Assembly (NCBI GenBank): GCA_963806535.1
Contig: CAWDYC010000003.1
Span: 288,001-352,000, forward strand
Source: Candidatus Bathyarchaeota archaeon
Lineage (GTDB): Archaea; Thermoproteota; Bathyarchaeia; Bathyarchaeales; Bathycorpusculaceae
DNA length: 64,000 nt
Direction: 5' to 3'
Shown here piece by piece: positions 8,898-28,380 of the stretch. Position numbers and translations under genes: made by a program. Numbering within the stretch: the first letter of the stretch is position 1; each line of letters begins with the position of its first letter. The notes beneath the pieces are model-generated. The model was not told the DNA's origin, ran no database searches, and saw only the letters and a list, made by a program, of their open reading frames with translations.

Positions 8898-8917
8898 GCG
8901 ACTAAATTTCTCTTTTT

Positions 8918-9400: not shown

Positions 9401-9422
9401 ATTTTTCTCCTCTCGGTTAATG

Positions 9423-9866: not shown

Positions 9867-10007
9867 AAAAATACTTAGATTAAGAGTTATTTCAATATTT
9901 TGTTTGCAGGATAGATAAGAAATAAGAGATTGTAAAAAGAAAGAAACTTTTGTTTTATTTATGGGCACGCATGCTTTTTTTCTTTGACGCTTTGCCCACC
10001 TTTTGCT

Positions 10008-10217
10008 TCAGCGCTTTCTATTTCCTCTGCTTTCGCCGCCTTTTCGCCCTATTTCCCGATAAAATTCTGTTCCACGTTCCTCAGCTACTTTTTCGCCGCC
10101 TTTCCTACCTATCTCTCTATAAAATTCTGAGCCACGTTCCCGAGCTACTTTTTGTCCTCCTTTTCTACCGGCTTCTTCACGGGTCATTTTTCTTCTTTGT
10201 TCACTTTCAACCGTCAA
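10008..10217 (-). CDS. KGG/Em-type general stress hydrophilin
   Basis: MTREEAGRKGG and two RG.EFYREIGRKGG repeats; GGAGGTGAA Shine-Dalgarno. Confidence 0.85.
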   Translation of the reverse strand: MTVESEQRRKMTREEAGRKGGQKVARERGSEFYREIGRKGGEKVAEERGTEFYREIGRKGGESRGNRKR

Positions 10218-10277
10218 AACTAGTTCACCTCCAACATTTCCTAAAGGTTGCCTGCCTTGTTATCTATTCCAAGGATA

Positions 10278-10300
10278 GCCCTTAAGCATATGTGGTTATC
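10278..10300 (-). promoter_or_regulatory. Shared upstream motif of KGG genes, copy 1
   Basis: + strand gcccttaagcatatgtggttatc matches the copies at 11391 and 12224. Confidence 0.6.
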
Positions 10301-10414
10301 AACCAACAATCACAGACAACCAAGGACAACTTGTTAGCTAACTAATTTTCGACTTTCGTTATTTTATGAGTTTTGATGCAAAAACTGAATAAAGAAAATG
10401 AAAAAGCTGTTTGT

Positions 10415-10699
10415 TTATTCTATTTTGCCGATCTCTTTAGTAATATCAATTGGTGAAGTGTAAGTCTTCTCAGGCAACTTATTTAGTAAGTCCATAACGT
10501 TGTCTGGAGCGTCTTTGTTTTGAGCATTATTGATTAACTTCTTTCTTTCAGCGGGATAATGCATGCCTGCAAGATATTTTTCGACGATGGCAGGGCTCAC
10601 ATGACCTGATTTACCGCTTTTGCTTGTATATTGACGTCTTGTTCCTCTACCTTGACCTATTCCATTACGTCCGGTTGCTTGGATGCCTTGTTTACTCGT
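10415..10699 (-). CDS. DUF2795-domain protein
   Basis: VEKYLAGMHYPA..LIN.A....APDNV..LL.KLPEKTY.SPIDI; frame open to ACG at 10699 just after a GGAGGTGAA SD (ORF track starts at GTG 10600). Confidence 0.8.
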   Translation of the reverse strand, partial: TSKQGIQATGRNGIGQGRGTRRQYTSKSGKSGHVSPAIVEKYLAGMHYPAERKKLINNAQNKDAPDNVMDLLNKLPEKTYTSPIDITKEIGKIE

Positions 10700-10771
10700 T
10701 TCCTTTCACCTCCAATCTTCTTAAAACAGGTAACTTGAAAAAGAAAAACCTCTTAATTGAAACCATTTTCT

Positions 10772-10939
10772 TTATTCTTCTTCGTGTTCTTTTCCTTCCT
10801 GAATAAGCCTTCGAACTTTTTGTCCACCTTTGCTGCCAATCTCACTGTAAAATTCAGGACCATGAGTTTGAGCTGTTTTTTCTCCACCCATCCGACCAGC
10901 TTCAGCAACAGTCATCTTTCCTTTTCGCCTTTCACTCAT
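10772..10939 (-). CDS. KGG/Em-type stress protein (55 aa, absent from the ORF track)
   Basis: MSERRKGKMTVAEAGRMGGEKTAQTHGPEFYSEIGSKGGQKVRRLIQEGKEHEEE*; GGAGGTGAA SD. Confidence 0.85.
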   Translation of the reverse strand: MSERRKGKMTVAEAGRMGGEKTAQTHGPEFYSEIGSKGGQKVRRLIQEGKEHEEE

Positions 10940-11062
10940 AAATTCACCTCCAAAAAATACTCAAAAATCCACAAATTGGAAATTGCTCGATGAATTACAA
11001 ATATATCTTGCTTATTGCGCAATGAAAATATTGCTAGCTGTAAAGAGAAAACTTATTCCTTT

Positions 11063-11314
11063 TTATTCTTCCTCATGGTCTTTGCCAGCCTGGATCAGCT
11101 TTCGGACTCTTTGTCCTCCTCGGTGACCTGCTTCCTCCAAACTAGTCTTTCCCCTAGCCTCTAATGCACCTTCATGCTGCTTAGCACGTTGAGAACCGCC
11201 TTTGCTGCCGATTTCGCTGTAAAATTCAGGACCATGAGTTTGAGCCGTTTTTTCTCCACCCATCCGACCAGCCTCTTCAACGGTCATCTTTCCTTTCCTT
11301 CTTTCTTCAATCAA
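11063..11314 (-). CDS. KGG/Em-type stress protein
   Basis: MTVEEAGRMGG..HGPEFYSEIGSKGG; TTG start after GGAGGTGAA. Confidence 0.85.
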   Translation of the reverse strand: MIEERRKGKMTVEEAGRMGGEKTAQTHGPEFYSEIGSKGGSQRAKQHEGALEARGKTSLEEAGHRGGQRVRKLIQAGKDHEEE

Positions 11315-11390
11315 CAGATTCACCTCCAAAATAGATCTTTAACGCCTTTCTTTTGTCTTGAGCTTTCTTGAATTTTCTAGCTTGAACATA

Positions 11391-11413
11391 GCTCATAAAC
11401 ATATGTGGCTGTC
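11391..11413 (-). promoter_or_regulatory. Shared upstream motif of KGG genes, copy 2
   Basis: gctcataaacatatgtggctgtc. Confidence 0.6.
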
Positions 11414-11562
11414 TTTGCACAATAACAAATTGAGAATGAAGATAAATAAAAAATAGTAAAACCTAAAACCTAGTTCACTGGTAAATCGAAGAATTTAGAC
11501 TTGGAAGAATTTGAAAAATACATTTTACATGACCGTGAAAGTAACGTTGACGATCGTTTTAT

Positions 11563-11751
11563 TTATTCTCCTTCGTGTTCTTTTCCTTCCTGAATAAGCT
11601 TGCGTACTCTTTGTCCGCCTTTTGGACCGCCTATCTTTCCACCTTTACGGCCTATTTCGCTATAGAATTCTCCGCCATGAGTTTCAGCAGTCCTTAATCC
11701 GCCTTTCCTTCCGGCTTCCTCAACGGTCATTTTACCTTTTCTTTCTGACAA
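11563..11751 (-). CDS. KGG/Em-type stress protein
   Basis: MTVEEAGRKGG..HGGEFYSEIGRKGG; TTG start after GGAGGTGAA. Confidence 0.85.
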   Translation of the reverse strand: MSERKGKMTVEEAGRKGGLRTAETHGGEFYSEIGRKGGKIGGPKGGQRVRKLIQEGKEHEGE

Positions 11752-11847
11752 AATTTCACCTCCACTAAAAACCACGAAAAGCATTGGTTTTAAAGAATAA
11801 AAATTTTCAAATAAATCAAAAATGATTTAGAAAAAATCATGATATTT

Positions 11848-12165
11848 TTATTCTTCTTCATGCTCTTTGCCAGCCTGGATCAGCTTTCGGACTCTTTGTC
11901 CTCCTCGGTGACCTGCTTCCTCCAGACTTGTCTTTCCCCTAGCCTCTAATGCACCTTCATGCTGCTTTGCGCGTTCAGAACCGCCTTTGCTGCCGATTTC
12001 GCTGTAAAATTCAGGACCGCGTTCTTGAGATACTTTTTCGCCGCCTTTACGACCTATTTCTTCATAGAATTCTTTTCCATGTGTCGACGCGGTTTTTTCT
12101 CCGCCTTTCCTGCCTGCCTCTGCGACTGTCATCTTGCCTTTTTTACTTTCCTCACGCATACTCAA
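11848..12165 (-). CDS. KGG/Em-type stress protein (longest paralogue)
   Basis: AGRKGG, HGKEFYEEIGRKGG, RGPEFYSEIGSKGG repeats. Confidence 0.88.
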   Translation of the reverse strand: MSMREESKKGKMTVAEAGRKGGEKTASTHGKEFYEEIGRKGGEKVSQERGPEFYSEIGSKGGSERAKQHEGALEARGKTSLEEAGHRGGQRVRKLIQAGKEHEEE

Positions 12166-12223
12166 AACTTATTCACCTCCTAAAAGACCACGGAGAAGTT
12201 AACAAGATTAGAGCCGATTAACC

Positions 12224-13974: not shown

Positions 13975-16374
13975 ATGGCAATGCGAAACTACAAATGGCT
14001 ACTCATCGCACTCATTGTTCTCATTATTTTTCCATCATATCTTATGTCGGTGGCCTCAAGCACTAGTGCCATTTCAAGCGCCACAGACTGGACGACTTTT
14101 CGTCATGACCCAGAGCACAGCGGATATACGGGTAACGATAACCCAACTAACTCTGCTAAGCTTCTTTGGAGTTACCAAACAGGTCGAATGGTGCAGTCTT
14201 CCCCTGCAGTAGCGAATGGTTTCGTTTTTGTAGGCAGCAGGGATAGCCAATTATTCTGTCTCAACGCCTCTAACGGTGAAGCCATTTGGAAATTTCCATT
14301 TCACTCGGAAGTATGGTCTTCGCCAACGGTTTATGATGGTGTTGTTTATGTTGGTACGGATGACGGGAGTTTATACTGTCTAAATGTTACCAATGGAAAT
14401 CCTATTTGGGGATCGAAAGTTGGACGTGTCGTGCGGTCTTCTCCAGCAATCGTTGATGATAGAATGTACATAGGAGCTTGGGACCAAAGGATTTTCTGTT
14501 TGAACGCAACCGATGGGACTCCGATTTGGAACTACACAACCACATCTCGTGTACAATCCTCACCCGCTGTTTCGAATGGCATATTGTACGTTGCCACGGA
14601 TAACTATTATCTTTATGCTCTTAATGCAACGACAGGCGATGAAATATGGAGTCGCCACACTGGAAGCATCAATTCCTCACCCGCCGTAAACAATGGAGAC
14701 GTTTACATTGGATCATACGACGGCTACGTATACGCGTTAAATGCCTCAACTGGAGACCAAATTTGGAGATATCAAACAGAAGATTCAGTCGAGTCTTCGC
14801 CAGCTGTCGCGCATGGATGCGTTTACGTCGGGTCCGACAATAACAACCTGTATTGTCTAAATGCATCTACTGGCCAGAAAATATGGCAAAGCCCAACTGG
14901 ATATTGGGTCATATCCTCGCCTGCAGTTGCAGATGGCAATGTGTACGTGGGGTCAGAAGACTGCAACATTTATGGTTTTAACGCTTCAACAGGAGCGAAA
15001 CAATGGAGTTACACAACTGGAAATATTATCGAATCTTCCCCAGCAATAGTAAACAATACCCTCTACATCGGATCCGATGACCAAAATGTTTATGCTCTCA
15101 CCCTATACCAATCGACAATTAAGCCCTCACCTTCACAGTCTCCAACCGCTTTATCGTTGAGCACACTAACGTTTGATGGTATTGCATGCGCTGTCGTAGC
15201 AATCAGCGTTTTTGCATTAGTTCAATTTACTCGATCAACGAGGAAAACTAAGTCAATCAATGAAAACGTGAAAATGCACATCGAAAATGCACATTGGTAT
15301 AAAACGCACAGTGATGCACTTTTTGTTTTAGGAATTCTGGCTTTTTCAATAATATTTTACGTCAACTTGTCAAGTGGACATCTTTGGGCCGCCGATGAGC
15401 AAACATACTCTCAATGGGCATATCACATGGTTAAAACTGGGGATTATTTAACACCTTGGGCTTTTGGCGATGTCTCATTTTGGGTTGTGAAACCACCGCT
15501 ATTTATGTGGTTGATGTCTCTGTCTTACCAAGCCTTTGGCGTTAACAACTTTACCTCAAGACTCCCAAGCGCTATTTTTGGAAGTTTATCATTAGTTCTT
15601 GTTTTCTATTTAGGAAAGAAACTTTACAATTCAGTCACTGGGCTTATATCGGCCATAGTTTTAGGCACATTTACAACCTTTTACAATTTTTCAACTCACG
15701 CAATGACCGATGTCACTTTCACCTTTTTCATAATCGCCAGCATATACTTTCTTGTTATTGGTGAGAAACCAGAAAAAACAAATCGATATGCAGCCTTAAG
15801 CGGCGTTTTCTTTGGTTTAGCATTAATGACAAAACAACTTCAAGCTTTACTGATCCCATTAATTATCTTCACCTATCTACTCTTGTCGCAGAGAAGCATA
15901 AGATTTGTTTTCAAAAGACAGTTCACGCTTTTTTGGAGCGTTGGACTTCTGCTTTTTTCTCCATGGCTAATATACATGGTAGTTTCTTATGGATCGCCGT
16001 TTTGGCAGAACTATTTTGTTTACGCCGCCGTTACCCGTTCAGTCAGCCCCATTGAAGGTCACGCAGGAAGCTACCTTTTCTATTTCAGCTACCTAATCAA
16101 TAATGAATATTTATGGGCGATTTTGCTGCCTTTTGCTGCTGGGTTTTGCGCGTTCAAGGCGATTTTTAAGAACTCAAAAGCAGATGTTTTGGTCATAATC
16201 TGGATGGCACTTGTACTAATAGTGTTTACTTTTGCTCAAACGAAACTTTTCTGGTATATCCTGCCAGCTTTTCCAGCCTTTGCTCTTGCCATTGGGAGTT
16301 TACTGTATCAAATTTCAAAGAAAATAGCTTCACGCTATCCTCGGCTATACCTTGAAAAGCGGTTGAATAGCTAA
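13975..16374 (+). CDS. Secreted PQQ-type beta-propeller fused to an ArnT/PMT-like (GT-C) glycosyltransferase
   Basis: Signal peptide; eight SSP.V..G.VY.G..D..Y.LNA.TG...W repeats; ADEQTY, KPPLF.W, SRLPSA, LMTK motifs with multiple TM helices. Confidence 0.85.
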   Translation: MAMRNYKWLLIALIVLIIFPSYLMSVASSTSAISSATDWTTFRHDPEHSGYTGNDNPTNSAKLLWSYQTGRMVQSSPAVANGFVFVGSRDSQLFCLNASNGEAIWKFPFHSEVWSSPTVYDGVVYVGTDDGSLYCLNVTNGNPIWGSKVGRVVRSSPAIVDDRMYIGAWDQRIFCLNATDGTPIWNYTTTSRVQSSPAVSNGILYVATDNYYLYALNATTGDEIWSRHTGSINSSPAVNNGDVYIGSYDGYVYALNASTGDQIWRYQTEDSVESSPAVAHGCVYVGSDNNNLYCLNASTGQKIWQSPTGYWVISSPAVADGNVYVGSEDCNIYGFNASTGAKQWSYTTGNIIESSPAIVNNTLYIGSDDQNVYALTLYQSTIKPSPSQSPTALSLSTLTFDGIACAVVAISVFALVQFTRSTRKTKSINENVKMHIENAHWYKTHSDALFVLGILAFSIIFYVNLSSGHLWAADEQTYSQWAYHMVKTGDYLTPWAFGDVSFWVVKPPLFMWLMSLSYQAFGVNNFTSRLPSAIFGSLSLVLVFYLGKKLYNSVTGLISAIVLGTFTTFYNFSTHAMTDVTFTFFIIASIYFLVIGEKPEKTNRYAALSGVFFGLALMTKQLQALLIPLIIFTYLLLSQRSIRFVFKRQFTLFWSVGLLLFSPWLIYMVVSYGSPFWQNYFVYAAVTRSVSPIEGHAGSYLFYFSYLINNEYLWAILLPFAAGFCAFKAIFKNSKADVLVIIWMALVLIVFTFAQTKLFWYILPAFPAFALAIGSLLYQISKKIASRYPRLYLEKRLNS

Positions 16375-16518
16375 TTTCACGGAATCAAAATGTTTCTAAA
16401 TGAGACAACATCTTTTTTTCACTTTCAGTCATGTCTCTGCTGTTCTAAACATTTGTTTCTTCACTTGATTCTTAAGCATCCTCGAACTATAGGGGCGAGT
16501 TCTAGAGGGATTTTACAG

Positions 16519-16993
16519 TTGACGAAAGGTAAGCCTTGGCCCATTGAAGACGAAAAACAGTTGACCGATTGGTTCAATTCGAGCACTAAAGATCTTCGAG
16601 TGCTTGCTTTCTCTTTTGATGGCAAATACAGCGAGAATGCTATTTATCAGAAACTTTTGGATTTAGGACTTATTCAGAAAGAAGAAGAAACTCGGGGGGA
16701 GCACACTTCTTCTTCTTCTACTACTACTACTGGTTTTACTTCTTCTAAGCTTGAGTTGCCGGAGGAGCTTCCGAGTGTTGAAGAGACGCTTAAAACTTGC
16801 GGCTGCATTAGAGGCATTGAAGGCCTCAGGACTCAAAAGAGACGATATTTTACGTTTGCGAGGCATTATTTCGGGTACCAAAATCTACCAGGAACTATTA
16901 GCAGACTACATTAACTATCGGGCGCTTGAAGCTGAACTTTTAGATTGGAGACGTAAATATGAGGAGCTTGCGAAGAAATCCACGGACAGTTGA
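16519..16993 (+). CDS. Putative small terminase-like protein (Myb/HTH-like N-terminus, helical C-terminus), frameshifted
   Basis: TTG 16519 MTKGKPWPIEDEKQL..SENAIYQKLLDLGL; S/T linker; continues LAAALEAL..KYEELAK in the 16751-16993 frame; overlaps the TerL start. Confidence 0.5.
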
Positions 16994-18409
16994 GGCTAAA
17001 ACTTTTAGGCCTAATCGATTGTTCCTTGAACGCGATCGATTACGCAAAGACATTGAAACAGTCGAAATCGCTGCTAAACTGAGAACTAAGGCTGAAACAA
17101 GTGACCCTTACAAATTTTTGCTTGATTACTGCAAACTAAAACCCTACAAGCATACACTTGAAATTGCCAAATTGTATTTTCAACATCAATTCTTGGCTGT
17201 CTGTTTGCCTCGGCAAACGGGAAAGAGTACCACAATAGGTGCTTTGATTTTGCAGGATGCATGGGAACACAATAACCTTACATCGGACTTATCGGGCCTA
17301 GCTGGCGACAGACAAAACTAAATCTGCTCAGAGTGGCTAACTTTTGCCGTAATCTCCCCCGACAGGGAATGCATATTCAAAGAACAAGAATAACCCTCCA
17401 AAACGGCAGCGTGATCGAGGCTTTCCCCAACAACGCCGATACAATAAGGGGCAACACTTTTGACAGGCTCTGGTGGGACGAAACCAACTTCACACCCAAC
17501 GACGAAGACTTGTATGACGCCATCTTGTTTACAATGAGCACCAAAAAAGACGCCAAATTAATTGCAACTAGCACGCCTTTCAACACCGATTCCCTGTTTT
17601 GGAAAATGTGTAACCACGAAGACTTTTCTGATTTTGGACGCTACCACATCTCTTGGGAACAGGCACTTGAACCCAACGGTCCGTTAAGCACAACAATAAT
17701 TGAGAAGATTAGGAGGCAGTTTGGTAATGACTCAACTAGGTGGCGTCGTGAGATGGAGGCTGAATGGGCAGAAGACGAAGATGTGTGGCTTGCCCAAAGT
17801 CTCATCGTCAGTTGCATAGATAGCTCACTTTTGCCTTATGACTTCCAGACCCAACCGCCATTTGGCGAATTTTTCATTGGCGTCGATTTTGGGAAGGAAC
17901 GAGATTACAGCATTGTGGTAGTACTAGAAAAGATAGGTTTCGTTTTGCGAGTGGTTCATGTCCACCGTTTTCCATTGCATTCAGAGTACGCAAGTGTCAT
18001 TGGATACGTCAAGAGCTTACAGGACCGTTGGAACAGCATTCACTCGGTCTACGCAGACGTAACAGGAGTAGGAAACTATATTGTTGAGGATATGTTCCGC
18101 AGTGGCATTCCCAATGTAATTGGTACAAACTTTACAGTCCAGTCTAAAGAAGAAATGGCAAATATCCTCAGGGAAAAGATGCGAGCTGGTGAACTAAAAA
18201 TTCCATATATCCCTACCCGAAAAATAGGAGACATTGACCTTACAGTTGAGTTAAATGTTGAAAAATATGAGCTTATGAAAACAGGGCACTTAGGATTTAG
18301 TCATCCCGAAGGCACTCACGATGATGTATTTTGGAGTACAGCACTTGCGGTTCTAGGTTCGGTTAGAACACCCATGCCAGGTAAAGGTGTTGGTTTTGTT
18401 TCGCATTAG
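16959..18409 (+). CDS. Terminase large subunit (ATPase + RNase H-like nuclease), one frameshift near 17280
   Basis: Walker A PRQTGKST, IRG..DRLWWDE Walker B, ATSTP coupling motif, REMEAEW, GVDFG nuclease Asp, D.TGVG, HDD. Confidence 0.9.
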
Positions 18410-18420
18410 CTTAAGGAAAA

Positions 18421-18499
18421 GAATTTGGAGATTGAAAAAAACTATGGTACTGGATGATTGTGGTTGCTGGTTTGCTGGTGTACTGCTAAAGGGCACAAT
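18421..18499 (+). pseudogene. Degenerate remnant of a PEF-type membrane-anchor tail
   Basis: In-frame EF..*..MIVVAGLLVY resembles the ..AGLLV(N/Y).K.HK ends of the 19416 and 21600 genes. Confidence 0.4.
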
Positions 18500-18594
18500 A
18501 ATTATTTTGATCTTGAATTTTAATGTCGATTCAATTTCGTTAAATAAAGCAAAACATTTTCGAGTTTGCAATCGTCTAAGGCGTTTCAATTAGC

Positions 18595-18862
18595 TTACTC
18601 GTATGCTTTTTCACGCGTCGAAATGGAGTAAATAACTATTGTTTGATCTGTTGACAGCTCAAATAGTATTCTTACAGTTTTTCCTATTCTGATACGATAA
18701 TGGTTTTGATATCCATGCAGTTTCTTGATGTCTATTCTTGTTGAAAGACCCTCATCCTCTAAAGTTTTTAGAGCTATCATTATCCTATCCTGATTTTCTT
18801 TCGGAAAATTTTTTGAACTGCTTTTTAGCTTTGCTTTCTACAAAAACCAAATACTTGGGCAA
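18595..18862 (-). CDS. RelE/ParE family toxin (N-terminus frameshifted)
   Basis: DIKKLHG..YRIRIG..VRILF...TREKAY; upstream MPKYLVFVESKAKKQF in another frame. Confidence 0.85.
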
Positions 18863-18865
18863 ATG

Positions 18866-19093
18866 TTAGTTCCCTTTCGTCAATTCAGTCAAAGGTTCGA
18901 GGTGCAGCTTTTTGCTTCTCTTTGCAGTTTCATATTCTTCAATCGCTTTAACATCTTCTTTAGAGGGTTCTTCAAACCCGATTAACCTTTCTTCAACCAG
19001 CTCATTTAACCCTTGTACTTTCTTATTTAATTCCAACAGCAAACTCCGAATCTCTTTAAGTTCAGCTTCAGATGTCATATTTCTCAAAATCAA
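18866..19093 (-). CDS. Cognate antitoxin
   Basis: Small acidic protein (EEPSKEDVKAIEEY) immediately upstream of the RelE-like gene. Confidence 0.7.
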   Translation of the reverse strand: MILRNMTSEAELKEIRSLLLELNKKVQGLNELVEERLIGFEEPSKEDVKAIEEYETAKRSKKLHLEPLTELTKGN

Positions 19094-19268
19094 ATAGCTT
19101 TCAGGAATATTTAACGGTTATCAACAAAACCACAAAAGAGTTTTTGCGGAAGACAGATTGTTTTCACGGAAGGTTAACCCGAACCCCTTATGTGGCAAGA
19201 GTTCAAAATTTTTGCATTTAACGATTCCACAAAATTTATGAGTAAACTCTGAAAAATACCTATACGCT

Positions 19269-19319
19269 TGTCAAGAAACCTGAACTAAAAAATTGCCATT
19301 TAGTTCAGAAATCTTGACA
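19269..19319. repeat. Nested inverted repeat
   Basis: TGTCAAGA-aac-CTGAACTAAA-9nt-TTTAGTTCAG-aaa-TCTTGACA. Confidence 0.8.
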
Positions 19320-19415
19320 TGCCCCCTTTTATCAATGAGCTTTTCCAGAGATGTATTTTACCCGGCCTCACGGAACTACTAAAGGCTTAATAGCAATTAG
19401 GGCAAACTGAAAATT

Positions 19416-20336
19416 ATGAATAAATCGAATCGTCTGCTGATTTGCATAGTATTGACTTCAACGGTGTTTACGTGTAGCCTAGTACAAGTTAGGGCAGATG
19501 TTGTTTTTCAAGATAACTTTGAAAGCGGGAATTTCAGCAAATGGACAGTAGTCGGTTCGCCAAATATGGTTACAAAACCCATCTTAGACGGAAATGCCTA
19601 TGCAGCACAATTCGCATTAAACTCGACCGATACTCAACCTGGCGGAATTTCATATGGCATTTCATATTTGCAAGCAACTTTTCCGTCCTCAAACACAGCG
19701 ACACTTGAATTCTATTTGCAGACAGATACACTTTCTCAAAGTGGTTCCCTTGACGTGGCTGAAATAGCTAGTCCAAGCAATATTCCTCTGTCGCAGGACA
19801 CCCCTTTAATTTTCTTATCTATATTGCCTCTTAAGAATGGAAGTCTGGTGTGGGCTTTTACTTATCCGTCAGGCGAAAACACGCCAATTGGCAGTCAAAC
19901 CAGAGTAGACAATTTCTATACCAAGTACACCCAATCAAGCGTGCAAACAGACGCATGGTACAAATTCGACATTGCAATATCTTCTAGCAGTAATATAATT
20001 CAGCTATCAATAAACAATTCACCAGTATTTACAGCTACGAACCAATTCATTTGGAATCCAACTGTCTTCAAACTTGGCAACATTGAAAGTTATAATTATA
20101 GCAATGGAAACATCTACATTGATGATATAACGGTTTCAAATACAGCAAACATCTCTCAATTAGAATCAACTCCCTCACCAACGTTAATTCCAACAGCAGC
20201 CCCAACTCAAGCTTCTTCACCTTCACCAACGCCTACATCCACCATTCCAGAATTTCCAGTATTGACAACTCCAACATTGCTTATCCTGATGGTAGCTGCT
20301 GGTTTGTTAGTAAACCTCAAGAAACACAAGCGTTGA
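19416..20336 (+). CDS. Secreted surface protein (lectin/LamG-like beta-sandwich) with PEF-CTERM-like tail
   Basis: Signal peptide, FQDNFESGNFSKW, IYIDDI, P/T/S linker, IPEFP + TM helix + KKHKR. Confidence 0.75.
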   Translation: MNKSNRLLICIVLTSTVFTCSLVQVRADVVFQDNFESGNFSKWTVVGSPNMVTKPILDGNAYAAQFALNSTDTQPGGISYGISYLQATFPSSNTATLEFYLQTDTLSQSGSLDVAEIASPSNIPLSQDTPLIFLSILPLKNGSLVWAFTYPSGENTPIGSQTRVDNFYTKYTQSSVQTDAWYKFDIAISSSSNIIQLSINNSPVFTATNQFIWNPTVFKLGNIESYNYSNGNIYIDDITVSNTANISQLESTPSPTLIPTAAPTQASSPSPTPTSTIPEFPVLTTPTLLILMVAAGLLVNLKKHKR

Positions 20337-20680
20337 AAACAATTGGTTTTGGGCTTGCAAATAAAACGTCGCAAACTTGGACAAAATTGTGTCACTCAAA
20401 AAAAATTCTGAGTGGTTTGTGTGGTTTGCGAAAGACCAAGCTTGATTAAAAAAGAATTTAGTAGAAGTTGCGTGTTTCTTTGTGTTTCTCGGCTTCGTCA
20501 TAGAAGCGCAGAACTTCATCAACGATTTCAACATTTGAGAGCAAAATGCCTCTGCTAACTAAATGCCTCAGAAAGAATTTCCACTACATCCAAATGGATT
20601 CTAATACTGGACTCCTAAAAAGAAAACTTGGCCCAGCACCGCCCGTGCCAGTTATCGCAAAATTTTATTCTTTTGAAAAA

Positions 20681-21046
20681 CTATAGGTCGTTAAGAATTT
20701 TTTTGAATTGCTGCTGCAAATTTGGTAAATCGGTTATTGCCGTGTTCCACATAGAAGGCCAATCTGCACTAAAGTATTCATGAGTGAGTTCATGTCTCAT
20801 TCCGCATAGTTTTTCATAAGGTATATGATAGTAATAGAATAGCTCCTTCACTTTTTTGTTTTTTGAAACTGCCCAGACAGCTTCAGAAATATCTCGCAAA
20901 ACATCCTTCAATGCATGCATTCTTATTTTTTGTTGAATAAACGCCTCATACGTTAATCCATATGTTATTTCTTTTAGGTCATCGATGTACTCTAGAATTT
21001 CTTTAACGTATAATTTAGGATCTCTGCGTTCCAAATTTTTCGTCAT
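20681..21046 (-). CDS. HepT-like (DUF86/HEPN) ribonuclease toxin
   Basis: RHELTHEY (Rx4HxY) motif. Confidence 0.88.
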   Translation of the reverse strand: MTKNLERRDPKLYVKEILEYIDDLKEITYGLTYEAFIQQKIRMHALKDVLRDISEAVWAVSKNKKVKELFYYYHIPYEKLCGMRHELTHEYFSADWPSMWNTAITDLPNLQQQFKKILNDL

Positions 21047-21357
21047 ACGTTAACAGCTTCTTTTAAAACCTGATCTCTTATGTGCTTATTCAGAAATTCT
21101 TTTGAAATTACATCTACTTTCAGATGTAGCTTTCGCTTAAGATACTGTTTTAAGTCATAAATCGTGAAAAGGCTAACAGCTGCCGAATACGTAACCAAAA
21201 TATCCAAGTCACTCTCCTCCGTTTGTTCTTTTCTGGCAAAGGAACCAAAAATATCAATGGTTTCAATGCTGAACCTTTTCTTCAAAGTAGGCTTCAGTGC
21301 TTCAAGTTGCAATTTGACTTCTTCCAGTGACTTTACTTCAAAGGTCTTTTGAACCAA
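21043..21357 (-). CDS. MntA-like minimal nucleotidyltransferase antitoxin
   Basis: FGSFARKEQTEESDLD (GSx10DxD); overlaps the HEPN gene by 4 nt. Confidence 0.9.
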   Translation of the reverse strand: MVQKTFEVKSLEEVKLQLEALKPTLKKRFSIETIDIFGSFARKEQTEESDLDILVTYSAAVSLFTIYDLKQYLKRKLHLKVDVISKEFLNKHIRDQVLKEAVNV

Positions 21358-21519
21358 ATCTTTTCTTCGCCCTTTTCAGTTGAATTATGTATTATTTTTT
21401 GCTAATAAGGATTTTCGGTTCACCAATGATTTACAAATTCCACTAAAACTTCTTGTTAAATTAATTTGGGAGCACTCAACTTTGTTTTTGCTTTAAGGCT
21501 TTGTCGAGCAGGAGGAGGA

Positions 21520-21552
21520 TAGTCAATAAATCTTGACTAATCGCAGTCAAGA
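21520..21552. repeat. Overlapping inverted repeats
   Basis: TAGTCAA..TTGACTA and TCTTGACT-6nt-AGTCAAGA. Confidence 0.7.
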
Positions 21553-21599
21553 CCCCTTTACGAGAAACCTTATAACAAAAACTGGTTCCAGATGTAAGT

Positions 21600-22904
21600 A
21601 TGGGTAGTTTCAACAAGAGCCTTTTACTATTTCTTACCCTTGCCCTATCCATTTCAAGCCTCTTAGTAGCTGATACTATCCCAGTTGGATTGGCTCAAAA
21701 CGGTACAAACGTCAACAGCGGAATAATAAACTCAGATACAACTTGGACCAAAGCAAACAGTCCCTATAATCTTACAGGTCCTGTAGCTATAAACCAAGGA
21801 GTCACATTAACCATAGAACCTGGAACAATTGTCAACCTTAATTATTTCTACATACAAGTAAACGGCACACTAATGGCGCAAGGAAGCTTGTCAGACCCCA
21901 TTATTTTCAATGGAGACAGAACAGGTGATGCCGTTCTTTCTTACGTTAACTTTTCACAATCCAGCAACAACTGGAATGAACAAAAAGAAACCGGCAATAT
22001 AATCGAAAACTGTCACATTAATGAAATCTCAATAAATGTAAATAACGCTTCACCGAAAATAAATAACAACCAAATAACCTCTAAAGAAGTATCGTATAAG
22101 GAAGGTGGAGGAATTTTCGTAAACGGTGGCGACCCAATAATTTCAAACAACAACATTAAAGCCAATGGAGCAGTTTCGATTAGTAACGGCTCACCTCTCG
22201 TTCAAAAAAACACGATCAGCGGATTTATGGGAATAATAGTAAGCGCAGGTTCACCGATAATTGCAAATAATGTTATGACTGGCATTGAATTTACAGGATG
22301 GACCACTGCAATTTCTTTCCCAGACGGAAGCACAGGCGATTCATATATTTCCGACAACACCATCAGCAATTATGACTTCGCAATTCAAGTGGTTCATTGC
22401 AGTAACATTATAACGATTCAAAGAAACCTCATCAATAACAGTACAATAGATACCTCTCAATCACAAGTCATAATTCAAAACAACACCCTAACGAATGCAT
22501 TGATTTACGTACATGCGGGACCAATCATAACTTATAATAATTTCCAAAATAACGTGAAGATTTCGTTGACAAGCTCAAGCAACGTTATCGCAACTTACAA
22601 CTGGTGGGGAACAACCAACCAGCAAGTAATCAACGAGACAATCCATGATTACAAGAACGATTTCAACTTAGGAACAGTAAACTTTGTCCCATTCTTGACA
22701 GCACCAAACCCGCAAGCAATTCCTAACATAACCGCATCAATTCCAACGCCTAATGTATCATCTTCTCCGATTTCAACGACTACCCCAGCGACTACTTTAA
22801 CGCCGACGGTTCCAGAGTTTCCATCATGGACAACCCTATTGCTAGCTGCTCTAATGTTGACGGGTGCCGGTTTGCTGGTTTACTTCAACAAACACAAACC
22901 CTGA
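21600..22904 (+). CDS. Right-handed beta-helix surface protein with PEF-CTERM-like tail
   Basis: Signal peptide, TTWTKANSPY, repeated P.I.NN.I units, NWWG, VPEFP + TM helix + KHK. Confidence 0.85.
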   Translation: MGSFNKSLLLFLTLALSISSLLVADTIPVGLAQNGTNVNSGIINSDTTWTKANSPYNLTGPVAINQGVTLTIEPGTIVNLNYFYIQVNGTLMAQGSLSDPIIFNGDRTGDAVLSYVNFSQSSNNWNEQKETGNIIENCHINEISINVNNASPKINNNQITSKEVSYKEGGGIFVNGGDPIISNNNIKANGAVSISNGSPLVQKNTISGFMGIIVSAGSPIIANNVMTGIEFTGWTTAISFPDGSTGDSYISDNTISNYDFAIQVVHCSNIITIQRNLINNSTIDTSQSQVIIQNNTLTNALIYVHAGPIITYNNFQNNVKISLTSSSNVIATYNWWGTTNQQVINETIHDYKNDFNLGTVNFVPFLTAPNPQAIPNITASIPTPNVSSSPISTTTPATTLTPTVPEFPSWTTLLLAALMLTGAGLLVYFNKHKP

Positions 22905-23164
22905 AAACAGATCGCAATCTTGAATAAAATTATATTACTCAAAAAAAAATTCTGAGTGTTTGCGAAAGAACAACCTTAATTAAGAAAAATTTAGTGAAGT
23001 TGCGTACTTCTTGCGTTTCTTGCGTCATATCCTCTTCACCAGTAATTTTTGAAAGGGGTTGCTGAGGCTCTTGAACAGACTAAAAGAAGAAGAGAAAAAA
23101 GCATTCACAACTTCTACAAACATCACATAATTAAAAGCTCACTTAAATCAAAAAGTGTATAACC

Positions 23165-23869
23165 TTAGGATTCTTTTCGTCTTGTCGTTATGACTCTAAC
23201 TATTACAGCCAAAGTTACAACAATTGCTAGCACAGCAGCGGTAATTAAGGCAACTGAATGTTGAATATAGAAAGGTAAGTTACTTTTGGTAGGCAAACTT
23301 AAGCCAAAATGCGCAATCGTAACATTACTGGCTGCAGAGTTGATGATCAATGTATTGTCGGGCAGGAGATTCCAACCTTGACCTTCGGCGAGAACATCAT
23401 TTTTGGGAATGATTACGCTCCACTCGGCTGGCTCAGTGGGGCCTGATGAGTTAAGGTCAAAGTTAACCATTTGCTGACCTTTGCCTTCCACTGTATAGCT
23501 CAGTAAGCTTACGGAAAATGAGTTATTGACTGTAACATAAGCCAATATTGTAACATTTGAATCCTGAGTAGAAATCGTCAAATTTCCAACGCTCTGAATA
23601 TCGTTTATTCCGAAACCGGGCATGCTTTGATTATTCAATGTTAAATCCGTGAATGTCCAGGTGTTATTCTTCAATGCTACTTCTGAATAGGAACCGTTTA
23701 CTGCAAAACTGATTGAGCCGTTAAGGTTGGGAATGGTGAATTTGTCGGCGCTTGTGAAAGTCTGGTTCGTTTGGGCTTGTGAAGTTGGAAAATAACAAGA
23801 AATTACCAATACTAATATGATAACCGCTCCTAATCCTATCAGGGTTTGTTTGTGGGTAGTTTTCTTCAA
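23165..23869 (-). CDS. Hypothetical secreted, C-terminally anchored protein
   Basis: N-terminal signal/TM, Asn/Thr-rich beta region, C-terminal TM + basic tail. Confidence 0.7.
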   Translation of the reverse strand: MKKTTHKQTLIGLGAVIILVLVISCYFPTSQAQTNQTFTSADKFTIPNLNGSISFAVNGSYSEVALKNNTWTFTDLTLNNQSMPGFGINDIQSVGNLTISTQDSNVTILAYVTVNNSFSVSLLSYTVEGKGQQMVNFDLNSSGPTEPAEWSVIIPKNDVLAEGQGWNLLPDNTLIINSAASNVTIAHFGLSLPTKSNLPFYIQHSVALITAAVLAIVVTLAVIVRVITTRRKES

Positions 23870-23895
23870 ATCTTATCGCAGCACAAGAATTCTGT

Positions 23896-24909
23896 TCAAA
23901 ATGGAGTATAAGGCTTTTCGACGTTAACGCGAGTATGCAGTCTCAACGGGTTAATTATTGCTTTTTTCGGTACTTTTCGTCGATAGACAAACATTGCCAC
24001 TACAATGGCTATAAATGCAATCGAAATGGCGATAACTGGAAGGACAATTGAAGCGTTAAATAGCCGTTGATTGGCGTTTGGTTCAAGAACGGTTGCGTTG
24101 TTGGGGTAACCTTGGCTTTCCCAGTATCCAAGATAGTTTGAATCGTTCGAAACGTTGATTTCCGTTAACCACTCAATCCATTTGTACCCATACTGGTTTT
24201 TAGCTACTAGAAATAGAGGCCATCCCGTTCGGTCTGTTAGGGTAACGTTGTTCATTTTGTAGGCTATTGTAATATTGTTCTGTTTCACGTAGCTCAATGG
24301 TAGAGACGTTGAGTAACCGTCTTTTGCCAAGAAAATCAGAGTTGTTGCATTTGGGCTTACATCTACGTGCTGAAGAAGGTCCTCGATTTGTACCCCTTGC
24401 CATAATAAGGTTACACTCCATCCTTCCACACAGGGAAGAGTAGCCACTTGCAGAGTCGAATTGAAGTTGTTAACGATGTCATCGTAGCTATAATTTGTTG
24501 GGTTATTTAAGAGGCCAGTAATTGCTAATTGGTAGGTTGCTCTATCCAGGCTCTGTGTTCCAGCAATTGCAACGTCAGGATGCTCATTTAGATAATCGAT
24601 GTAAACACTAATGGGTGTTAGATTTTGGCCTTGATACTGACTTACTTCGTCTGGGAAAAGAGAAGATGTTGGTGTCGGATGTGAGATGAGAGTGGAGGTT
24701 GGAGTTGAAGTTGGAGTTTCAGTCGCTTTAATTGTTGAAGTTGGAGTTTTTCCGGTTGGAAAAGAAGTCGAAATAGGCGTTGAGGAAGGGGATGGAGTCG
24801 ACGAAGACTTAGAAAAGTTTTGAACAAAAAACACCACTGAAATAATTAATATGATAGCTACGAAAAGTAAAATCAGAATTGTTATCTTATTTCGTTTAGA
24901 AATTTCCAT
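23896..24909 (-). CDS. Membrane-anchored sulfite-oxidase-family molybdopterin oxidoreductase (MsrP/YuiH-like)
   Basis: LPCVEGWS..W.GV, DGYSTSLP, GWPL.LV..YGYKWIEWL, GYWE..GY. Confidence 0.85.
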   Translation of the reverse strand: MEISKRNKITILILLFVAIILIISVVFFVQNFSKSSSTPSPSSTPISTSFPTGKTPTSTIKATETPTSTPTSTLISHPTPTSSLFPDEVSQYQGQNLTPISVYIDYLNEHPDVAIAGTQSLDRATYQLAITGLLNNPTNYSYDDIVNNFNSTLQVATLPCVEGWSVTLLWQGVQIEDLLQHVDVSPNATTLIFLAKDGYSTSLPLSYVKQNNITIAYKMNNVTLTDRTGWPLFLVAKNQYGYKWIEWLTEINVSNDSNYLGYWESQGYPNNATVLEPNANQRLFNASIVLPVIAISIAFIAIVVAMFVYRRKVPKKAIINPLRLHTRVNVEKPYTPF

Positions 24910-25480
24910 CTATAATTCATTATTATGAAAGTTGTATTTATCGGTAACGAAACGCTCTATTTTTTGCTCACGGCAGCTTAGCATCAACATTTATTTCATA
25001 ATTTTTTCAATAAATATACATTGTTTCCTGAACCATGAATGAGACAAGCTCCATAGGATTTGAATTATTTTTGGTTCAAATCGATATCAACACTTTTTCA
25101 AAAAACATTTCTGGCGTTAAGATTGGTCGGATAACTATTCAACTAATCTTAAACAAAAAGCAAACAGAGCCAAACCTATTATGCTTAAGAATGACGGCCC
25201 ACTGGGAATGCAACTCCATGAAGCGATAAGTACACAACTCCTTTTCGGCTAACGAGAACGAATAAAGACCGTTGACCATATCGATTAATGCGAATAAGTT
25301 ATTTTAAGGTCCCTCCTGCAGGTGGAAAAAGTGGATATTTGGCATTTGTTTTGCTCTTGCCTCTTCTTCGAAATTATCACGCAATATGGCGTCAGGATCG
25401 ATGGTTTGATCCAAAAAGAATTCTTTAAACTTAGGTTTTATAGCAAAGTAATGCTTAGTAGGTGTTGGGAGAAAACAGGT

Positions 25481-25789
25481 TTGGAATATTTACTTCTCTT
25501 AATTTCTATTCTAGTAACATGTATAATCTTAAACTTGGGATTCAAACTTCGAATTTTTGAATCATCAAAACAAGAAGTGATTGTTCTTGTTTCACTTTTT
25601 ATTATTGGAACTGTTTTAGACAGCTTTGCAGTGTTGAGAGGATATTGGAGCTATAGTGAAAACGTAAACTTTTTTGTAGGAATAAAAATCGGTGTGTTGC
25701 CGATAGAGGAATACCTATTCATGATAGTTATTCCCTATCTGACATTAACAATCTTCGGATTAATAAGAAAAACAAGCGCAGTTCATTAG
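25481..25789 (+). CDS. Lycopene cyclase domain-containing membrane protein
   Basis: D.FA..RG.WSY..GIKIG.LPIEEYLF motif; TTG start inferred. Confidence 0.7.
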   Translation: MEYLLLLISILVTCIILNLGFKLRIFESSKQEVIVLVSLFIIGTVLDSFAVLRGYWSYSENVNFFVGIKIGVLPIEEYLFMIVIPYLTLTIFGLIRKTSAVH

Positions 25790-26007
25790 TAATAAAGCCA
25801 AATCTGATTTTGCAGATGTAAACTGACCTTTATTTCAGTTTCGCATCAGTTTTTATTATCAAAATAGAAAAAGTGGCATGCCACCAACATACAAATTTTC
25901 GAAAAAGATGAAGAATGAAGAACTTGAACTCACAGCCAGAATAAATGATATGCAGTATTTTTCTGCGGAAAACAACGAATCCGAGTTGATTATATTTCTG
26001 CTGAGCA

Positions 26008-26442
26008 TCATAACGGAGAAGCGGAGGAAGGATAGCGGCCCATTGCTTCCAATATTTCATCTGAGAACGATGTTTTTCCGAGATTTCGCACAAAATCGGA
26101 AGCCACAACTATCCCAACTAACTTGTTCTGCTTCAAAACCGGAAGTCGCCTAATCTGATTATTTGACATCACTCTAGCAGCTTCTTTAAGTGAAACATCA
26201 GGATCAATCGTTATAAGAGTTTTAGACATAATTCCCGAAACTTTGGTTTCTCCAGGCAATTTTTTCGCGCAGACTCTTCGGACGATATCTCTTTCAGTAA
26301 CTATGCCAACAGGAACTTCGCCATCCATGACTACTAAACACCCCAGTTGATTAGAACTCATAAGCTCCGCTGCTTCAAAAACGCTATTATTAACGTCGAT
26401 TGAAACAACATCTTTTGTCATAATATCTTTCACTGATGGCAT
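26008..26442 (-). CDS. CBS domain pair protein
   Basis: VKDIMTK..GIVTERD; IRRLPV..LVGIV. Confidence 0.92.
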   Translation of the reverse strand: MPSVKDIMTKDVVSIDVNNSVFEAAELMSSNQLGCLVVMDGEVPVGIVTERDIVRRVCAKKLPGETKVSGIMSKTLITIDPDVSLKEAARVMSNNQIRRLPVLKQNKLVGIVVASDFVRNLGKTSFSDEILEAMGRYPSSASPL

Positions 26443-26510
26443 AAGCTTTCTTAAGAAGAATCGACCTAAAAAAGATTTTTAGGTCTCATTAAAAACTAAA
26501 GGGAAGTTTG

Positions 26511-28190
26511 CTATGCGTTTTCTGCGGATTTTGGTTGTTCATTAACGTATTTTCCGCCTCTAAACGCAGAGCAAACCGCAGCTATAATGCACAATACCGC
26601 ACCGATAATGAACGCTTCTCTAAGGGCAGTCATGAATGGTGCTGAAATCGCATTTGGGAAAAACGTTGATCCAGTGAGATAATTCATCGTTGATGCGGGT
26701 ATAGAGCTTACTAACGAAGCAGGAAGGGTGTGAAGTATAGTTGCGACAGGGTTGTAACCAAGAAACGCTCCAAATAGAGCGCCTGAGGCTGGAGTAGAAC
26801 TGAAGACGTGTGCAAGCTGCGGAGATGCACCAGCACTGGTAACTGCCGCCGTAAGGGCACCCGGAAGAGTTGCGCTAAGCGACACTATGATAATAGTGAA
26901 AAATACAGCCTGGCTTATCATCATCGCACTATTCTGTATGGTCGCACGCATTCCAGAAGCTGCACCTCGACACTCTGCAGGGATGGAGTTCATTATCGAT
27001 GCCATGTTAGGAGAAGCAAACACTCCACCACCAATTCCCATTACAAAAAGTACTGCAGCAAATGCTAAGTAAATAAAATCTACAGGAAGCAACACGAAGC
27101 CTATGAAAGCAACTGCGGAAATCACCATGCCTAAAGTAGCAAGCAACCTCGCTCCATGCTTGTCTGAGAGCCAACCGCTGATTGGCCCAGTTAAAACAAA
27201 ACCTATTGACATAGGAATCATGAAAATTCCAGCCCAAAATGGTGTCGAATCAAAGCTGTAGCCGTGGAGAGGAAGCCAAATCCCCTGAAGCAGTATAATG
27301 AGCATAATCATGACTCCCCCTCTTGACATTGAACTGAAAAATGAAGCAAGGTTACCAGCAGTAAATGCTCTTATCTTAAACAGATCAAGCCTAAACATTG
27401 GCTCAGCAACATGATTCTCTATGAATGGAAAAGCAACTAGGAGACTTACGCCTGAGACAAGGGAAGTAATGACCCATGGATTAGTCCAACCCATAGACGA
27501 GTTTCCATACGGTATTAAACCGTAGATGAAACCTGTCAAAACCAGTGTTAAGCCACCACCAAAAGCTATGTTGCCCCAAACATCCAACTTCTGGTGTTTC
27601 TTGATGTTGCATTGCTCTTTAAGCTTCAAGTATGACCAAACGGTACCTATCACGCCAACCGGGACACTTACCAAAAATACTAGCCGCCAGTCAATAATCG
27701 CTAAAACTCCACCAAGAACTAAACCAATTAAAGAGCCGGCAAGAAAAGCTATCTGGTTTATTCCAAGTGCTTTTCCACGTTCGTTACTTGGAAAGGCATC
27801 AGTTATTATTGCAGCACTATTTGCAAAGAGGAATGCACCTCCGATTCCCTGAACTATTCTGAAAACTATTAATTCGATGGCGCCCGCGTTACCTTGATTA
27901 GGGGTTATTGAAAGTAGTATCGAGCCAACCGTGAAGATCAGGAACCCAAGGTTATAGAGCTTCACCCGCCCAAACATATCCGAGAGTCTGCCAAAAGTAA
28001 CAAGCAATGTCGCCGTAACAATGCTGTACCCGAACAATATCCATAGCATATACTGGAAAGATGAGAAAGGATCAATGTTGATTCCTCGGAAGATGGCTGG
28101 CAACGCAATCATAACGATAGTGCTATCTATTGAAGCCATTAAAATGCCAAGAGTCGTATTCGAAAGCGCAACCCACTTGTACTCAACCAA
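26511..28190 (-). CDS. MFS transporter (DHA2-like)
   Basis: GRLSDMFGRVK motif A, RIVQGIGG, about 14 TM helices. Confidence 0.92.
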   Translation of the reverse strand: MVEYKWVALSNTTLGILMASIDSTIVMIALPAIFRGINIDPFSSFQYMLWILFGYSIVTATLLVTFGRLSDMFGRVKLYNLGFLIFTVGSILLSITPNQGNAGAIELIVFRIVQGIGGAFLFANSAAIITDAFPSNERGKALGINQIAFLAGSLIGLVLGGVLAIIDWRLVFLVSVPVGVIGTVWSYLKLKEQCNIKKHQKLDVWGNIAFGGGLTLVLTGFIYGLIPYGNSSMGWTNPWVITSLVSGVSLLVAFPFIENHVAEPMFRLDLFKIRAFTAGNLASFFSSMSRGGVMIMLIILLQGIWLPLHGYSFDSTPFWAGIFMIPMSIGFVLTGPISGWLSDKHGARLLATLGMVISAVAFIGFVLLPVDFIYLAFAAVLFVMGIGGGVFASPNMASIMNSIPAECRGAASGMRATIQNSAMMISQAVFFTIIIVSLSATLPGALTAAVTSAGASPQLAHVFSSTPASGALFGAFLGYNPVATILHTLPASLVSSIPASTMNYLTGSTFFPNAISAPFMTALREAFIIGAVLCIIAAVCSAFRGGKYVNEQPKSAENA

Positions 28191-28304
28191 GGTTTTTCAC
28201 TGAAATTTTATTGGATGTGTATAGTGTGAGATAAAAAGATTGTCTCGCAAGCCCGGGTTTCAGAATAGCACGTACGACCCCTTTTCCTCTGAAAATGAAT
28301 TAAG

Positions 28305-28380
28305 CGGGCCCGCTGGGATTTGAACCCAGGATTCTCGGCTCCGGAGGCCGATGCCTTAATCCGTGCTAGACTACGAGCCC
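28305..28380 (-). tRNA. tRNA-Arg(CCG)
   Basis: GGGCTCG..CGGGCCC acceptor stem, TCGGC-CT-CCG-GA-GCCGA anticodon arm, GGTTCAAATCC T arm; CCA not encoded. Confidence 0.95.

Follow-up and report, generated by a model that had tools for sequence, protein, structure and literature searches.

A portal-less terminase gene pair in a Bathyarchaeia chromosome: descent, persistence and possible role

Why should an archaeal chromosome hold the motor with which tailed viruses fill their heads, with no virion gene anywhere near it? The question is raised by a stretch of 64,000 nucleotides, hereafter the window (positions 288,001 to 352,000 of contig CAWDYC010000003.1, assembly GCA_963806535.1; G000:C3:288001-352000 in our coordinates). 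It belongs to a Bathyarchaeia archaeon, a sediment archaeon whose genome assembly (the source genome) comprises 2.95 Mb in 12 contigs, with a completeness of 91.75%. One copy of a two-gene cassette lies in the window; it is made up of a gene for a helix-turn-helix (HTH) protein in the slot of the small terminase subunit (TerS) and a gene for a large terminase subunit (TerL) that carries all of its motifs (Table 1). The cassette descends from Bathyarchaeia tailed viruses whose genes read TerS-TerL-portal-...-capsid, and it stands alone in this genus. It persists over a synonymous divergence greater than 1 and at several chromosomal sites, often beside a tRNA gene or a tRNA 3′ fragment. The pair seems to be kept for a purpose rather than to be debris. 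The best explanation in our view, to which we give about an even chance of being right, is that it would be retained as a working terminase that packages or cuts DNA with the heads of a related virus.

The two genes and their interrupted frames

Positions 17333-18409 match the Pfam families Terminase_6N (E 6e-8, 33 bits against a cut-off of 22) and Terminase_6C (E 1.3e-6, 28.9 bits against a cut-off of 22.6), as well as the PHROG family phrog_2, terminase large subunit, at 1.9e-27. The N-terminal 120 amino acids (aa), read in a separate frame (16959-17321), include Walker A; their matches to phrog_38 and phrog_2 have E values of about 5e-4 to 7e-4. All the TerL motifs of the window copy fall in invariant or nearly invariant alignment columns among its relatives, and the residues D310, D367 and H454-D455-D456, which are invariant in the reference rows, are all kept. 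In domain order, motifs and length (about 483 aa) the protein is like the TerL of tailed viruses with Terminase_6N and Terminase_6C, called "phage FluMu gp28-like" by one source; it differs from them in that no portal or virion gene follows it and in that the assembly has one frame break in it. The first-pass annotation of this DNA had described a full-length TerL whose Walker A and B, coupling and nuclease motifs were intact apart from one indel. The motifs and the length stand, but the pair has two indels, one deletion in each gene.

The small gene overlaps the TerL start with its end. Intact orthologues are 153-168 aa long and consist of an N-terminal Myb/GcrA-like HTH, a low-complexity linker rich in Ser and Thr, and a C-terminal helix of 50 residues (103-152). 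The HTH is a GcrA/Myb-like three-helix domain both by PDB profile (E 0.003) and by Foldseek (prob 0.96, rmsd 1.3 over 45 residues), and the structure model of the small protein has a predicted local distance difference test (pLDDT) score of 83.5. In an Atlas search its nearest clusters are unnamed and mostly viral, and a Terminase_5 lead at 0.81 is below the trust level. The earlier description of a gene of about 160 aa with an HTH and a helical part, overlapping terL and built like a small terminase, is thus confirmed by the frames, by the profile and fold of the HTH and by the long helix. Like a TerS gene, it lies upstream of terL and overlaps it, although an architecture of HTH plus helix is not by itself specific to TerS. 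In 68 of the 85 stretches compared (see below) the gene immediately ahead of TerL is of this family, and the same slot is occupied by the family in complete virus relatives; the two genes thus form a unit.

Each gene is broken once (Table 1), and we tentatively consider assembly errors more likely than decay as the cause of the two breaks. As a background, proteins of at least 200 aa from the loci of other genomes were searched against the source genome (at least 50% identity and 80% cover), and conserved genes were found in more than one frame at 36 of the 136 places tested. So high a proportion of broken frames among a free-living archaeon's conserved genes indicates indels from the assembly. 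In all, the 157 kb of conserved coding sequence compared contain 50 frame switches, or 0.32 per kb, which gives an expectation of 0.6 in 1.89 kb and a probability of 0.12 for two or more, so that the two deletions may be assembly errors of the kind that runs through the whole assembly. Homopolymers are only weakly enriched at the frame switches of this genome (runs of at least 5 at 30%, against 19%), which is no proof of sequencing error. Apart from the two deletions the pair shows no damage and no in-frame stops. Public reads (four DNA runs of one study, with a share of at most 0.14 each) over 16300-18500 give no cover at 16744-16891 or at 17188-17335; the runs found included none of RNA. Further split genes of the source genome, for instance at C11:196165-203574 and C11:205069-206163, probably reflect uncorrected assembly indels; with such a rate of split frames, any pseudogene call in this genome needs read support. 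In the window itself, two overlapping ORFs (open reading frames) on the same strand, 40801-42186 and 42131-43537 (461 and 468 aa), may be one gene split by a frame switch.

Stand-alone copies, their descent and the selection on them

A protein search with TerL returned 1595 relatives at E<=1e-3 among 4151 candidates, many of which come from long Bathyarchaeia contigs of chromosomal origin; the nearest, of 483 aa, shares 93% identity with the window TerL. Scanning genomes, each species represented by one, yielded 241 matching stretches; the analysis used the best 80 of these loci and the best 80 of 133 matching viral contigs (IMG/VR). Neighbourhoods were compared, after clustering of their ORFs, over 85 stretches, namely the 80 loci, four other places of the source genome and the window.

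The family occurs in three contexts. In context A, a provirus array of capsid, a sheath-sized protein of 462 aa, tail tube (PF18906 at 5.6e-14) and tail proteins is followed by the small gene, TerL and a gene joining an ABC-ATPase to a GNAT domain; 76 of the 80 viral contigs are of this type. In context B, a virus order TerS-TerL-portal-capsid, are the other four viral contigs (L102, L111, L135 and L174) and the locus L010, whose portal matches phrog_9232 at 9e-31 and whose major capsid protein matches phrog_1650 at 3e-16. In context C the pair is alone, as it is in about 40 of the 85 chromosomal stretches. The automatic count was 48 stand-alone copies against 39 in context A, but the automatic stand-alone label was wrong for L010 (relabelled as type B) and for L053 and L067 (ATPase-GNAT gene downstream), and a few further stand-alone loci lie on contigs too short to judge. 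Among 755 neighbour proteins of 44 stand-alone loci few match the 80 viral contigs, and those that do are mostly host-type surface proteins; for the window the count is 0 of 21. The neighbours that recur upstream of stand-alone pairs are glycosyltransferases of the GT1/GT4, GT2 and PMT types, PQQ-propeller proteins and NosD-like surface proteins. The first-pass annotation had held that homologues usually lying in complete proviruses, together with real indels and relaxed selection here, would make this copy a decayed provirus, and that repeated portal-less occurrence under purifying selection would speak for a module of its own. Homologues do lie in complete proviruses and viruses, yet the portal-less pair recurs as often as stated, and with purifying selection (below).

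The tailed viruses and proviruses of Bathyarchaeia thus share both gene families with the window, the pair ending their capsid-sheath-tube-tail array ahead of the ATPase-GNAT gene; the window differs from type A in having none of the array genes, and its clade is nearer to the type that reads TerS-TerL-portal-capsid. One of our context A loci, L061, is on contig JAAKEZ010000002, the contig on which the provirus BATPV1 has been described (PMC11705971). A provirus of 46.8 kb is called "common in Bathyarchaeia" elsewhere (PMC11697101). Across the class (151 genomes) the TerL family is in 70 genomes and the provirus tail tube in 14; across the genus (120 genomes) the figures are 95 and 34. By these figures, a TerL match alone wrongly marks a provirus in most genomes of the genus. 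Genomes of the genus often have several TerL copies, most of whose open frames are 480-490 aa long.

In a TerL tree of 77 rows the window copy falls in a fully supported clade (support 100) of six stand-alone copies, and a separate clade of 18 stand-alone copies is nested among provirus copies, with no provirus copy inside it. Stand-alone and provirus copies interleave, which forces at least eight changes of state. In a second tree, with the viral contigs added, the window clade is sister to the type-B viruses (support 98) on a long stem of 0.64. Because the one clade is sister to type-B viruses and the other lies among proviruses, pairs must have become stand-alone on at least two occasions and out of two virus groups. 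Among the 80 + 80 loci, viral and provirus copies come no closer to the window clade than 61-72%. The five clade-mates of the window copy come from genomes of the same genus and lie at different chromosomal sites, and two of those genomes have an empty tRNA-Arg site. DNA likeness between the window and the five is confined to the pair itself, from 16505/16519 to 18409/18412, at 76-79% identity. The phylogeny against archaeal viruses that had been proposed as a check on the idea of a separate module therefore favours it, with the two clades of stand-alone copies only and the placement beside type-B viruses. In the clade-mates (L005-L009 and L021) a conserved gene of 153-170 aa and of no known family (cluster 26) lies just upstream of the small gene; it is missing from the window and from the source genome.

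The ratio of nonsynonymous to synonymous divergence (dN/dS) points the same way. Pairwise values for TerL within the window clade are 0.05-0.12, at dS 0.4-1.7, and those for the small gene are 0.08-0.49. Over TerL pairs limited to dS 0.15-1.5, the median is 0.091 for stand-alone pairs (n=42) and 0.073 for provirus pairs (n=37), so that the other proposed check, on selection, also came out in favour: stand-alone copies are under purifying selection like that on provirus copies. In one context group of syntenic stand-alone copies TerL has dN/dS 0.06-0.10 and the flanking host genes 0.05-0.21, and the dS of TerL resembles that of the flanks (for example 1.16 against 1.2-1.8). A TerL dS like that of the host flanks at such low ratios argues against the low ratio being a mere relic of time spent in viruses.

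In the syntenic loci, likeness extends for kilobases upstream but ends 20-55 nt beyond the stop codon of TerL. L035 has a complete tRNA-Gly 53 nt beyond that codon, and eight loci (L005, L006, L033, L034, L037, L039, L043 and L064) have a tRNA 3′ fragment, comprising T-arm and acceptor in the same orientation, at a distance of 41-85 nt; in the clade-mates L005 and L006 the distance is 67-85 nt. Some loci have a second tRNA fragment about 250 nt further on. Such an arrangement is characteristic of an element that ends at a tRNA attachment site and beside which later arrivals have stacked.

A proposed working terminase and its rivals

If, as we infer, the pair still functions as a terminase, the small protein would bind a site in or near the cassette, and TerL would cut at that site and fill empty heads with DNA, the heads coming from a related virus that infects the cell or resides in it. 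What is packaged would be the cassette together with its downstream DNA, much as in satellites or in lateral transduction. The benefit may lie in the transfer of neighbouring DNA, in interference with the virus or only in the cassette itself. A more specific version, which we put forward as speculative and improbable, is that the cassette would be a minimal packaging initiator at the edge of surface and glycosylation islands. When a related virus supplies heads, it would drive one-way headful export, at high frequency, of the island with its surface proteins, glycosyltransferases and toxin-antitoxin (TA) genes. It would be an archaeal counterpart of lateral transduction, run by an element of two genes that originated on two occasions or more and whose copies can move, or be converted, from site to site.

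Partial parallels exist in bacteria. Phage satellites such as the Staphylococcus aureus pathogenicity islands (SaPI) and phage-inducible chromosomal islands (PICI) carry a small terminase of their own, along with integrase, regulators and replication genes, and capsid-forming PICIs are also known. By analogy, the cassette would share with them a packaging gene outside a complete virus, a position near a tRNA-type attachment site and a dependence on helper heads. It differs in that no integrase, regulator or replication genes were found here and the window shows no attachment repeats flanking the pair, in that both terminase subunits are present rather than TerS alone, and in its archaeal host. 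In lateral transduction (Staphylococcus 80-alpha, Salmonella P22) packaging starts in situ from a site in or near terS and proceeds one way into host DNA, which would fit the variable DNA that begins just after TerL here; there, however, the terminase belongs to a complete, inducible prophage of the pac type. Gene transfer agents (GTAs) and domesticated defective prophages also consist of virus genes that purifying selection maintains in a chromosome. A GTA retains genes for capsid, portal and tail, none of which was found in the source genome; RcGTA is reportedly encoded by a multilocus genome.

Across an archaeal class, then, a packaging pair persists by itself, often more than once in a genome, with selection on it matching in strength that in proviruses, and often at tRNA-linked breakpoints that adjoin variable clusters of surface-glycan genes. 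If active, it would give uncultured sediment archaea a new route to exchange or protect islands of surface genes and would, to our knowledge, be the first satellite- or transduction-like packaging element proposed for archaea. A literature search for orphan or stand-alone terminases, which covered the provirus papers without their supplementary tables, found no description of portal-less pairs in archaea.

Several observations weigh against a working terminase. No helper genes were found in the source genome (91.75% complete): the profiles PF05065 and PF04860 and that of the tail tube have no match in it, and neither portal nor capsid of the type-B viruses was found by tblastn. The small protein has no Pfam or PHROG match, to a TerS family or to any other, and its best full-length Foldseek rows have E >=0.27, a TerS chain appearing only at E 0.8. 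Frame-split TerL genes are confined to stand-alone copies, 7 of 47 against 0 of 40 for the other copies (p=0.014; 5 of 45, p=0.057, without the two copies of the source genome). TerL fragments of 77-97 aa adjoin three stand-alone copies, which indicates that some decay does happen. Some TerL bodies have been swapped between copies, no tRNA fragment lies beside the window copy, and displaced core DNA between the pair and the tRNA-Arg makes the status of the intervening genes as cargo only putative. Finally, other loci counted as stand-alone could hide virion genes that no probe recognised.

The strongest rival is that the pair is provirus debris, the last piece of a tailed virus that integrated at a tRNA-linked hot spot, now a recently dead pair of pseudogenes without function whose low dN/dS records its viral history. 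The two frame-breaking deletions within 1.9 kb speak for it, as do the restriction of split copies to stand-alone ones, the place of the pair in a variable stretch adjoining tRNA-Arg and the presence of relatives in complete viruses. The same genome also has, on C5, a TerL copy 55% identical to that of the window and split at a different site, and, on C4, a 97-aa TerL fragment. We nevertheless think debris unlikely. The frame-break rate of the assembly accounts for the two indels (P=0.12), the pair lacks in-frame stops and other damage and closely resembles an intact protein, and syntenic stand-alone copies have diverged together with their host flanks at low dN/dS. The stand-alone-only clades of 6 and 18 rows also argue against debris. 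In bacterial cryptic prophages, moreover, terminase is described as among the genes lost first (PMC7744054), so that incomplete prophages preferentially lose what is kept here; set beside such early loss, the selective retention of a terminase would be unusual. The proposal of a stand-alone module rather than debris is therefore supported in part, by recurrence, clades, selection and a DNA likeness limited to two genes, and is weakened by the split copies, found only among the stand-alone ones.

A role in host defence, in which the pair would bind, cut or mis-package the DNA of related viruses, or act as a decoy terminase that aborts virion production, appears to us quite unlikely. It would agree with the conservation and the intact catalytic motifs, with the TA modules (HepT/MNT and the ParE-like gene) beside the window copy and with the frequency of the family in genomes without the provirus tail tube. 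However, a search of three TerL proteins (an intact orthologue and the two intact paralogues of the source genome), four small partners and one neighbour gene of unknown family against the 5027 models of PADLOC (E<=0.01) returned no family, and TA neighbours occur at the window only, glycosyltransferases and surface proteins being what recurs elsewhere.

It is very unlikely, in our estimate, that the stand-alone copies are a viral gene reservoir, kept alive by repeated recombination with passing viruses so that selection acts in the viruses and not in the host. Exchange of this kind is suggested by L050, whose TerL body is 92% identical to that of L048 while its flanks match another context group at 82-88%, by L020 and L038, which differ by dS 1.6 in TerL and by 0.45-0.56 in the flanks, and by the interleaving of states on the tree. 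Yet the window clade, which spans dS up to 1.7, has no viral or provirus copy closer than 61-72% among the 80 + 80 loci, and the 18-row clade holds no provirus copy. The dispersed GTA-like packaging that had been suggested is unlikely on genomic grounds, given that no capsid, portal or tail-tube gene was detected in the source genome with the probes used, type-A virion proteins being represented by no more than a weak three-gene tail-like remnant on contig C11.

Surroundings of the pair and further observations

Table 1. Positions of the terminase pair, its motifs and its surroundings in the window
Feature	Positions	Strand	Basis or remark
Small gene in the small-terminase (TerS) position, ~158 aa	16519..16993	+	TTG start; frames 16519-16797, then 16799-16993
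Frame break 1, 2 nt missing in the small gene after 16797	16796..16800	+	DNA alignment with four orthologues
TerL, T4 / Mu gp28 type, ~483 aa if read through	16959..18409	+	Frames 16959 to ~17278, then ~17279 to 18409
Walker A (P-loop) of TerL	17208..17231	+	Alignment, motif positions
Frame break 2, 1 nt missing in a short run of TerL	17276..17281	+	DNA alignment with four orthologues; placed after the second frame's in-frame TAA
Walker B of TerL	17465..17488	+	Alignment, motif positions
Coupling motif (motif III) of TerL	17564..17578	+	Alignment, motif positions
RNase H-like nuclease domain of TerL	17879..18337	+	Terminase_6C match; acidic motifs 17879-17911, 18050-18073, 18311-18337
Host gene, PQQ beta-propeller + PMT_2 glycosyltransferase fusion	13975..16374	+	Domain matches; upstream of the pair
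Weak ParE-like gene (18595-18780, E 0.003) and 75-aa upstream partner (18866-19093)	18595..19093	-	Downstream of the pair
HepT (HEPN) / MNT toxin-antitoxin pair	20681..21357	-	E ~1e-14
Variable stretch, glycosyltransferase to tRNA-Arg	16380..28303	.	Holds the terminase pair, TA genes, surface proteins and displaced core genes
tRNA-Arg (CCG)	28304..28380	-	3′ end faces the variable stretch; synteny resumes here

The first-pass annotation had placed the pair between a glycosyltransferase and TA genes and had seen no portal, capsid, tail or integrase gene in the 64 kb, and on both points our scans agree with it. Among 62 window ORFs of at least 100 aa (E<=1e-3; 25 of the 35 matched families listed), the head-and-packaging PHROGs hit are TerL families alone, by the two TerL pieces, and integrase PF00589 has no match in the window and eight elsewhere in the source genome; the window thus holds no complete tailed provirus. 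A B12/radical-SAM gene is also upstream of the pair. Downstream, besides the TA genes, are PEF-CTERM-type surface proteins, a CBS gene and an MFS transporter, and then the tRNA-Arg.

Synteny with three genomes of the same genus runs up to about 16300-16380 and again from 28304. The stretch in between, 3′ of a tRNA gene, is therefore variable, and the pair occupies the end remote from that gene. Its counterpart measures 95 bp in G233 and about 1 kb in G157, whereas G038 has 5.7 kb of unrelated DNA there. A single inserted island of 11.9 kb was considered and rejected: the tRNA-proximal 2.4 kb (25841-28267) belongs to the core and occurs at other places in five relatives (81-85% identity), and the stretch is a mosaic. 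It is this mosaic whose TA and surface genes the pair, on the first-pass suggestion, would head and possibly mobilise. No direct repeats of at least 10 nt with the tRNA-Arg region were found within 16000-28250, nor convincing direct or inverted repeats flanking the pair. Just after the TerL stop is a remnant of 23 nt (18462..18484, plus strand) that is 87% like 22862-22884 (repeat family D6), where a surface-protein gene of the PEF-CTERM type has its 3′ end, coding for the membrane anchor. A gene of this type may have been where the pair inserted or recombined.

Elsewhere in the source genome are two TerL genes that are intact and only very distantly related, both preceded by a small gene. Besides the one in the window, portal-less pairs of small gene and TerL are found at L002 (G000:C7:333061-334826) and L001 (G000:C5:121616-123341), one intact (490 aa) and the other split. 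L003 (G000:C3:382777-386160) is a very distant packaging module. In addition to an intact TerL of 434 aa and a small gene of 133 aa, it comprises an ABC-type ATPase, a GNAT acetyltransferase and a gene of 188 aa that belongs to no Pfam family; no virion genes surround it. Its ATPase and GNAT genes are a split form of the fused gene that follows the provirus TerL, which indicates that this gene travels with terminases in two distant lineages.

Some details of the provirus arrays deserve mention. A profile of cluster 14 matched no solved structure; the capsid homologue is cluster 27, not cluster 14. An apparent second TerL of 462 aa in these arrays proved to be an artefact, single linkage having joined clusters by way of a fused ORF of L078. 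That ORF (8732-11209, 825 aa) joins the sheath-sized gene of 462 aa to the C-terminal 385 residues of TerL, a deletion having taken out the entire tail module; the record carries the label Methanocella and may be mis-binned. In L011, at about 9600-10000, the provirus small gene is interrupted by an ORF of 342 aa on the opposite strand, probably an insertion sequence. In the window at 10000-12200, families of direct repeats of 66-220 nt match a tandem series of paralogous minus-strand genes, which are small and resemble a stress protein with KGG repeats (e.g. 11848-12165).

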